Of a DNA stretch of 64,000 nucleotides, positions 27,504-30,500 are shown one piece after another (position 1 is the stretch's first letter; each line of letters opens with the position of its first letter). Where the stretch lies: the NCBI GenBank assembly GCA_036867785.1, contig CP145418.1, forward strand, positions 1,116,001 through 1,180,000, read 5' to 3'. A program made the translations under genes and the position numbers. This stretch comes from Plasmodiophora brassicae (Eukaryota). Under the pieces are notes generated by a model that was not told the origin of the DNA, searched no databases, and was given only the letters and a program-made list of their open reading frames with translations.

Positions 27504-30500
27504 ATGTCGCCGCCTCCGCGTGTTCGGTGGAGACCACAACGTAATGCCTTAGGTACGGTCTGAACGTCATCATGCCTGAGGAGATGTTTACGGGGGCATA
27601 GGCGTCACGATCGTAATTTTCCTGTTGCTGTTCTCATATGGGCTTTGTGACACTGGCCCCCATGTTGGATTTGATGCGTTGCATTGGGCATCACTCGATG
27701 GAGTAGATCTGCGTCTTCCGCGGAATACCAACCTATCGATGTTGCATCATTTCGAACACAATTCCACGTATCACCACGAGGAGCCTCATATCGTTGTCTT
27801 TGCAGCCAACGTCTTCTTCTCTCGCAATTGTAACGTTGGGAGACTAGAGCCATGTGTCTGTGTACGAGATGCATTCAGCGCTGCAATCGCGCGTCTTGAC
27901 GCTGCCGCTACGGAGCGTAAAATCCTTGTGTTTGGATCTCGTGTTCCTCATAGATTACAACTGAATAACGCACGCGATGTTTTAATCGTTGCAATGACTA
28001 AGGTTACATTTAGTCATCCAATTCGACTATCGTCATGCGTCAATGTCACTTTCGATGGATTCAGCGTGCTTGATATAATCGTTGATGATTCGGACCATAT
28101 ACGCCTATCTGGAACTTCTTCTGAGGACACTTTCCGTGTCTTTGTGGCCGATACGACTACACGATCCCCACCAGCACCGGTTCGGATTCGTGTTTCTGGA
28201 TTTTCTGGGTTTGATACTTTATCTATTGTCTTGAGAGATGACAGCCGCATTTTATGCTCTGCTGATTCTGTCGAGACAATTTCTCTGGATCTCCTTTGCA
28301 AGAATGGACCGTGCTCCGGTATCTTTGACAACTCTACTCTAGCTTGGGCCCTCTCTTCGGTTGCGGTGTCCGGCCGTTCGAACTGGCTTCTGCATACGTC
28401 TGGCGGGGATCTATACGTGCGGCGCGCATTATGTTCCAGATTAGCCATTACAGGTCCGTCGAGCGTTTTCCTCGAGGGCTCCGCTATCCTCGATGATCTA
28501 TTCGTCAAATCGCCATTCGTTATTTCGCGAAGCAACGCTTCTGTTGTGGCCACAAACTCGGTTGAAATTGGCGACGCGAATTCAGCTGTGGTTTTAGAGG
28601 CAAACGCAGTGATCCGGAGCGGATCTGTCATCGTTAATGGCCGTCGAATTCTTTTGTTCGGGTCAATTCGCGCGACTACTACGCTTCACATCGGGTCCTT
28701 CCTGGACACCAGTAGTGTTGACGTTTCAGGCACGCTCCATTGCGTGTCAGAGGGAAAGTCAATAGCAACGATTCGAATCATTGCACATAACCTGATCAAC
28801 ATATGGCCCTCAGCAGTCGTCGAGGCTGAAGGGAACGCGTTTGCTTGCAACGGTGGACTGATTGAGGTTGGTGGTGTACAGGCCAGCATGTCCGATAACA
28901 CCTTTGTGCGCGACCTGTACGTATATCGCGGCTCCCGCATTTCTGTGGATTCCTTTCCTTTGCAAGGCGATGCCGGAACTATCATCTTACTGTCGAGCGA
29001 CGCGACCTTGTTTAACGGTCGAGCAACGGCACGTAGTGGTATACTCACAGGAGAAGCTGGCTTCATTGAAATATCGTCCCTTGATTCGCTTCATTTCGAT
29101 GGAATCACCAATCTGTCTTCCGTAGCCGGATCTTCAGGGACGCTTCTTCTGGATCCCATCACTGTTGTCATAGATGTTTCCGGCTCAAATGACAATCTGC
29201 TACCTGTGATCAGTTCGGGAACTAGCCCGTCGTCGATGACAATATCGGCATCAGCTATTCATACTTCCCTAACAACAGGCGATGTCTCGATTTCCGCTAC
29301 TGCCAACATTACTGTAAACGCGAATATCGGGACGGGTGCGGAGACGCATGCTCTCACACTCTCTGCGGGCACGACGCTTTCTATAAATGCCGCAATATCG
29401 ACGAGCGGTGCTGTCACGTTGAGCGGCTCGACGGGCATCAACGCCAATGGCAGTCTAATATCGGGTACTACTATGTCGCTAACCGCGTCAGCTGGACCGG
29501 TCGATGTTCGTTATCCGATTACGAGCGGGACGCAGTTAACAATATCTGGAACTACAGTATCGATCAATGGAACCGTCTCTGCCGGAACGACGATGACAGT
29601 CACCGCAACATCCGGCGCAATTACAGTTGTTCGGAACTGCACTTCGTCCGGTATCATGACCTGGTCAGCTACAGATTCGCTCCAAGTTGCAGGATCGGCA
29701 ACACTAGCTACACAGGGATATACATTCTCTGCAACGTGTGATAGCGATTGCAATGGCATCGGAGATTTGAACATCGCATCTGGAAGTTCAGTGTTGACGT
29801 CGAATGGAGCTGGAATTATATCGGTGAACCAGTTATCACTGGCGGGCGTTATCAAATCCGGCAGTGGATCCATATCCCTAAGTGGCTGTTCAAGCAAATC
29901 CATACAATTTGGTGGCAGTGCAGGAGCTGGAACTGCCATTGAACTGACTTCCTCCAAACTTGGGCAGATTACAACATCTGGCGGATATGTCTTAAAGAGT
30001 TCTTCTATTAGCGTTCAGGCAGTGTCGACATCGACGAGCGTTGAACTGAATGCAAGAGCAACAGGAGGAACTATTTCTTTTGCGGGCACCTCTTCTTTTT
30101 CTAGTTTAAACGCTACTGCGCACAGTGGAATATCTGTCCTTGCTTCAATCTCGACGACGGCAGGAGCTCTTGTCCTAGACGGCGATTACTCTGCGACATT
30201 TGCGGGAACGACATCTATAACGTCAAACGCGTTGCTTACCTCCTACACCGATTTATCGATTCATCCGCACGGTACTGGTCGAGTGGTCGTGTCATGTCCT
30301 GCTTCATGGTCGGCGCGAAACCACGTAAACCTGTATGCAGGGACTCGGGTTTATGGTTCGGGCGGCGATTTCTCTTTGGTATCTGATAGTGCGGCCACCG
30401 GAACTGGAGGTGCTCTGAAATTTGCTTCGACATCAAATATCACATTCGTAAGCTCCTTGGTCACGAAGCTTTATCTCAAAGGAAATGCCTTCCAGTGGTC

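Follow-up and report, generated by a model that had tools for sequence, protein, structure and literature searches.

Analysis of a 64,000-nucleotide stretch of the Plasmodiophora brassicae genome (the window; positions 1,116,001 to 1,180,000 of CP145418.1, contig 9 of a 25.28-Mb, 20-contig genome) revealed a spliced gene that starts at ATG 27504 on the forward strand and, together with sequence beyond the window, probably encodes one very large secreted, largely β-helical protein with a bacterial-type head, a long run of repeats, and an NHL and IPT/TIG tip, acting as an adhesin or matrix fibre. The head is related to the secretion domain of EtpA and HMW1, TpsA adhesins of bacterial two-partner secretion (TPS), and is likely of bacterial origin. 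The gene itself is a genuine spliced eukaryotic gene and not contamination.

A spliced first exon and a predicted signal peptide

Removal of a 49-nt, phase 1 intron (GTACGG..CATAG) yields one reading frame from ATG 27504, the first ATG from 27381 onward, whereas the unspliced DNA carries an in-frame TGA at 27577 followed by a TTG at 27625. The splice joint (listed as 27549>27599, skipping 49 letters, GT..AG, cut +3) was present in contigs of the RNA-like runs X1, X2, and X11, which come from three studies and reach 115, 136, and 155 letters 5′ of the joint. By contrast, the DNA-like run X15 had no joint anywhere, and its contig 26652-28485 runs unspliced, joining the gene to the upstream intron-bearing neighbour. 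Neighbouring GT..AG introns were likewise skipped in X1, X2, and X11 and retained in X15, and the eight joints listed in total span 48-74 nt, making 49 nt an ordinary intron size here. These joints, together with the sequence, bear out the intron boundaries, start codon, and in-frame stop of the initial annotation and supply the junction-spanning RNA evidence it called for. Its description of the first exon as hidden does not hold, as the protein at the locus is identical to NCBI PBRA_007092 (CEO98978.1), labelled hypothetical and partial, which starts with MSPPPRVRW and reads on through the junction; the exon was therefore hidden only from a bacterial open reading frame (ORF) caller.

By a heuristic of hydropathy and the −3/−1 rule, the N-terminus comprises a basic n-region, a hydrophobic core whose mean hydropathy is 3.1 over 11 residues from residue 16, and a −3/−1 site of G-L-C followed by D, in line with the n-, h-, and c-region layout and G-x-C site proposed earlier and suggesting an endoplasmic reticulum (ER) signal peptide with likely cleavage after Cys32. 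In the strain of run X15, 9 differences and a 5-letter insertion fall in 27172-27366, no differences are listed for 27367-27954, which holds exon 1, the intron, and the signal peptide, and the head has 8 coding differences, of which 6 are silent (compared span 27172-28701).

The named non-self homologues of the head are all bacterial or carry bacterial family names, as bacterial contamination of the assembly would predict. However, the intron is removed in three studies, the other strain's DNA-like contig joins the gene to an intron-bearing neighbour, and the locus sits within a 1.3-Mb contig, leaving contamination a negligible probability, and we rejected it. The surrounding genes are of ordinary eukaryotic kinds, several of them containing spliced introns, and include a TELO2-like ORF, a transporter, and a small GNAT acetyltransferase.

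A head built from TpsA parts

The region at and just past the end of the interval 27504..28850 shares homology with the distal half of the EtpA/HMW1 secretion domain, the matched part covering EtpA chain residues ~295-578 of an N-terminal domain that spans residues 66-640 (PMC11463764). A second, weak phmmer stretch of 6.4 bits matches EtpA 109-191, within the TPS domain, and a weak Fil_haemagg match (E 0.024) lies ahead of the repeats. An Asp-Pro pair is invariant in all 20 alignment rows, and Asp534 is matched to HMW1 residue 441, where the HMW1 pro-piece ends, so that HMW1-like processing at Asp534-Pro535 is possible.

In the predicted structure, the head adopts the secretion-domain β-helix fold of the HMW1/EtpA subfamily. 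Model residues 163-502 superimpose on the complete HMW1 secretion domain (73-441), and EtpA is the best structural match. An α-helix opens the model ~90 residues ahead of its TPS-like part; in TPS domains, according to excerpts of PMC5422565, the cap consists of β-strands instead. As an alternative to a passive adhesin, the head could be a stalk-borne enzyme of the pectin-lyase superfamily that degrades or binds polysaccharides. We consider this improbable, as TpsA domains rank clearly above lyases in the structure match, the protein has no Pfam lyase match, and no catalytic residues were identified.

The initial annotation had described the TPS secretion motif as absent and the export module as replaced, which is partly correct. 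There is no NP.G motif in residues 1-1081, no match to the Pfam TPS model (PF05860) or TIGR01901 on the protein in scans that detect TPS in the bacterial homologues, and no match to a home-made TPS profile on the head. The head nevertheless shows homology to the distal half of the EtpA/HMW1 secretion domain, and the model superimposes on these domains. The head is thus not a TpsA by membership, yet it is built from TpsA parts.

A repeat array leading into an NHL and IPT/TIG tip

From 30730, a 1125-bp (375-codon) unit repeats head to tail, with 30 copies starting in the window and ~43.4 in total, and the array ends ~15.6 kb beyond the window. Most array copies carry 0-5 substitutions relative to the reference copy. 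The repeats are coding and Ser/Thr-rich (29%), and diverged copies flanking the array have a ratio of nonsynonymous to synonymous substitution (dN/dS) of 0.16-0.21, indicating purifying selection. The reading frame stays uninterrupted through the head and five copies. It is open again over the last copies and the tip that follows them, an NHL propeller and at least six IPT/TIG domains, up to the stop at C9:1199675 (contig 9 coordinates). From ATG to stop, the gene would measure 56,172 bases, or ~18,700 codons by coordinates.

NCBI annotates two genes here, listing the tip end as PBRA_008674, and the RNA evidence comes from a stretch outside the array. In addition, 17 of 37 scored copies in this assembly, with copies lacking an exact anchor or cut by the region edge left out, contain frameshifting indels (29 indels at 27 sites, 17 in homopolymer context). 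These observations would suit two genes, or a broken gene, parted by the array, with expression limited to the 5′ part (up to ~36,860) and the tip. However, almost every indel is confined to a single copy, most lie in homopolymers, and substitutions are scarce, a pattern from which we infer long-read consensus error; excerpts of PMC6823432 describe an assembly of P. brassicae made from long reads and comprising 20 contigs. Furthermore, head and tip each share the frame of the repeats, PBRA_007092 is marked partial, PBRA_008674 begins inside a repeat and has no signal peptide, and the diverged copies are under purifying selection. Two separate genes are therefore unlikely, and we favour a single gene.

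Several further features of the array were observed. Third-position GC content is 0.45-0.47 in the unique head but 0.81 in the homogenised repeat (30730 onward), a jump that may reflect GC-biased gene conversion. At 36358-39708 and 55470-59957, the copies show patchily more substitutions and indels (95.8-99.4% identity), as if few reads underlie them. One copy (31855-32982) measures 1128 bp and has an extra in-frame glycine codon, and the 375-residue unit at 32983-34107 contains a weak internal duplication (positions 16-132 versus 230-349; hhalign E 3e-4).

Similar NHL domains are also found in secreted-looking proteins encoded at several other loci, making it plausible that the tip is resident. 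At C9:972001-1002000, ~4 near-identical genes stand in tandem; the NHL proteins they encode look secreted and have internal repeats and a hydrophobic C-terminus, and the cluster contains frame breaks. A large gene at C18:541001-551000 encodes several NHL propellers, followed by a putative REJ/GPS-type region and several putative transmembrane segments.

Bacterial relatives and the fate of the NPNG half

A TPS domain is carried by 127 of the 164 proteins examined. Three of the 37 without an N-terminal TPS match are the query, its NCBI record, and the protein P0014, and most of the others look like fragments; P0018 and P0030 (Planctomycetota), as well as P0033, the last from an Anaerolineales metagenome-assembled genome (MAG), have long other sequence where TPS would be. 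In the P0033 family, 10 of 20 proteins bear EtpA-like module motifs without a TPS match. One Anaerolineales MAG encodes four proteins with the EtpA-like module, although only 4 of 251 genomes of the order match; in bacteria, too, the module is patchy and has probably been transferred.

In trees of the module, the P. brassicae protein always pairs with P0014 (97 to 100). When the TPS-bearing, long-branched P0043 is included, it is sister to the pair (98/92, careful tree). This placement would agree with transfer of a complete TpsA gene, whose NPNG-bearing half then diverged past recognition with no TpsB to read it, as would the superposition on the whole HMW1 secretion domain, the 6.4-bit stretch inside the TPS domain, and the prevalence of TPS among the proteins examined. 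However, P0043 and the pair are long-branched, the pair has an odd composition, and no supported sister is left without P0043 (and P0019); moreover, the model begins with a helix, and relatives without TPS exist. We give transfer of a complete gene almost an even chance.

Alternatively, the donor was already TPS-less, Sec-exported, and Anaerolineales-like, with a signal peptide, a helix-capped β-helix start, and an EtpA-like module, in which case the eukaryote had nothing to replace. A profile built only from the N-terminal parts of the P. brassicae protein and P0014 reached at least 8 bits on 11 of 20 P0033-family members, 10 of these matches lying just behind the first PIQxA motif of the family, and on three genome loci found via the module, versus 0/158 other proteins and 0/120 decoys. 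The approximately unbiased (AU) test never rejected one clade with Anaerolineales (p 0.60, 0.13, 0.28), a clade that never formed in free trees. By contrast, the profile-profile score of the N-terminal parts (hhalign, 20.6) falls below the best of 40 shuffles (24.2), unrelated frames reach 14-22 bits genome-wide while the expected loci were not recovered, and the family, whose members are not independent, was picked after a likeness had been spotted by eye. Given also the scarcity of the module in the order, a TPS-less donor is a serious but less than even possibility. Loss of the NPNG half before transfer and its loss afterwards are about equally likely.

The initial annotation had concluded that TPS export was replaced by ER secretion. 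While its conclusion of a eukaryotic gene stands, this formulation conflates two signals, because bacterial TpsA bears a cleavable signal peptide besides the TPS domain (residues 1-68 in HMW1A), and it presumes an order of events that is not given, because bacteria already have TPS-less proteins with an EtpA-like module. The ER signal peptide stands in for the Sec signal, and recognition by TpsB, a bacterial requirement directed at the TPS domain according to excerpts of PMC5422565, is what the eukaryote does not need. A search with PF03865 (TpsB) gave no match, but none in its 14 control genomes either, and is uninformative on presence. The description of the N-terminal region as Cys-rich is not upheld, with 10 Cys in 418 residues (2.4%) compared with 1.7% in the neighbouring TELO2-like ORF, although this is higher than in TPS-bearing bacterial homologues (0-1 per 600 residues in five proteins; 0-6 in five TPS-less ones).

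Features of the locus and neighbouring genes

Table 1 Features of the locus on window coordinates, or contig 9 coordinates where marked C9
Feature	Position	Strand	Remark
5′ untranslated part of exon 1	27395..27503	+	Reach of RNA-like contigs, not a mapped start; no ATG in 27381-27503
Exon 1 coding part, basic n-region of predicted signal peptide	27504..27552	+	
49-nt GT-AG spliceosomal intron, phase 1	27553..27601	+	Skipped in 3/3 RNA-like runs, kept in DNA-like run
Putative h- and c-region of signal peptide, likely cleavage after Cys32	27602..27648	+	Hydropathy and −3/−1 heuristic
Predicted α-helix, then first β-helix rungs (residues ~102-222)	27856..28218	+	Model; weak likeness to N-terminal part of TPS-less Anaerolineales proteins
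β-helix region superimposing on HMW1/EtpA secretion domain (residues 195-534), no NPNG	28135..29154	+	Model; low confidence at residues ~248-298
Sequence-detectable bacterial module (G-F-x-E-x-S ... L-L-L-D-P), distal part of EtpA-type N-terminal secretion domain	28714..29373	+	
Asp534-Pro535	29152..29157	+	Alignment and structure match to HMW1 441; putative processing site
Diverged first copy of 375-residue repeat	29605..30729	+	46% amino-acid identity to array unit
Tandem array of 1125-bp near-identical coding repeats, scattered frame breaks	30730..64000	+	
Linker, NHL propeller, six or more IPT/TIG domains, stop	C9:1195610-1199675		Beyond window; annotated separately as PBRA_008674

The small, intron-bearing GNAT acetyltransferase gene (Acetyltransf_CG; 26736-27177) lies directly upstream of this gene and is linked to the preceding transporter gene by a single contig of run X11. 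Further genes at 2863-16002 encode, by Pfam, tubulin-tyrosine ligase, ankyrin repeat, Rubisco LSMT-like, TPR, Usp, and pterin-binding domains.

Discussion

We propose that gene transfer brought in the head from a bacterial source before the lineages of P. brassicae and P0014 separated, and that the protein would enter the ER, where TpsB would be unneeded because there is no outer membrane. The protein may then have gained cysteines and N-glycosylation sites, and the array may have expanded recently via homogenising recombination into a stalk of ~0.3 micrometre, a length scaled from EtpA (25 nm per ~1,470 residues). Such a multivalent adhesin or matrix fibre would keep the propeller tip away from the cell, with the repeats and terminal propeller binding glycans or surfaces by avidity, as do the EtpA repeats, which act together in binding blood-group glycan. 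By this analogy, we give a role in attachment or matrix formation an even chance; an enzyme on a stalk is less likely.

Several observations weigh against the single giant protein with a TpsA-like head. The alignment behind the model contained 18 bacterial fragments over the distal half, pulling that half towards the EtpA fold, while the proximal half was mostly built on two rows and is partly of low confidence, and β-helices slide in register. The likeness of the repeat to bacterial proteins is weak (best 17 bits; at least 10 bits in 9/187 versus 0/187 reversed). No read or contig spans the gene from head to tip, and the copy number and the frameshift count come from a single assembly. We saw neither a transmembrane segment nor a GPI-like tail in the protein, leaving surface retention unexplained. 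Finally, P0014 is the only close relative found, and the trees single out no donor of the head.

The closest known system is EtpA, the TpsA of enterotoxigenic E. coli (PDB 8cpk, 8vba, 8vbb), which likewise has a signal peptide, a β-helical N-terminal domain, and then tandem repeats. The P. brassicae protein differs by the missing NPNG motif and detectable proximal TPS sequence, an extra N-terminal part, ~43 repeats of 375 residues rather than 4 of ~228, its NHL and IPT/TIG tip, its intron and cysteines, and its eukaryotic host. Identity to the HMW1 pro-piece of Haemophilus influenzae (PDB 2odl) is 15%, and, unlike for HMW1, neither processing nor a partner transporter is in evidence here. The TPS-less P0033 family shares a signal-peptide-like start, the missing TPS match, and the module in like order behind a possibly similar N-terminal part, but that likeness is not significant, and these proteins have 1,200-1,700 residues and another C-terminus and stay separate in free trees. 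PBRA_007092 and PBRA_008674, the two ends of this locus, are annotated as 'hypothetical, partial' and 'IPT/TIG domain-containing', names with no link to TpsA. PbALE, described in excerpts of PMC13738674 as a secreted, adhesin-like, mucin-like effector of P. brassicae, corresponds to other genes (PBRA_005440, 005499, 005498). In the literature and supplements searched, neither this gene nor any TpsA-derived protein of P. brassicae was described.

In its fullest form, the proposal is a domesticated bacterial TPS adhesin that acquired an intron, leaves via the ER with no need of TpsB, was fused to a resident NHL-IPT/TIG tip to reach ~18,700 residues and a ~0.3 micrometre fibre, is possibly cut at the Asp-Pro matching the HMW1 maturation point, and attaches spores or zoospores; this we advance only tentatively and with some doubt. 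By itself the intron matters little, as it was already annotated; it is the locus that matters. Such a protein would, to our knowledge, rank among the largest protist proteins, and because annotation splits the gene in two around the array, the locus is invisible in present catalogues. TpsA adhesins are Gram-negative bacterial proteins that need TpsB for export and folding, according to excerpts of PMC5422565; if the proposal is true, a eukaryotic, ER-routed TpsA descendant would mean that the β-helix can fold without its transporter. The attachment of plasmodiophorid zoospores to roots is stated as unknown in an excerpt of PMC9944879, and the protein would be a concrete candidate for this step, to localise and to block.
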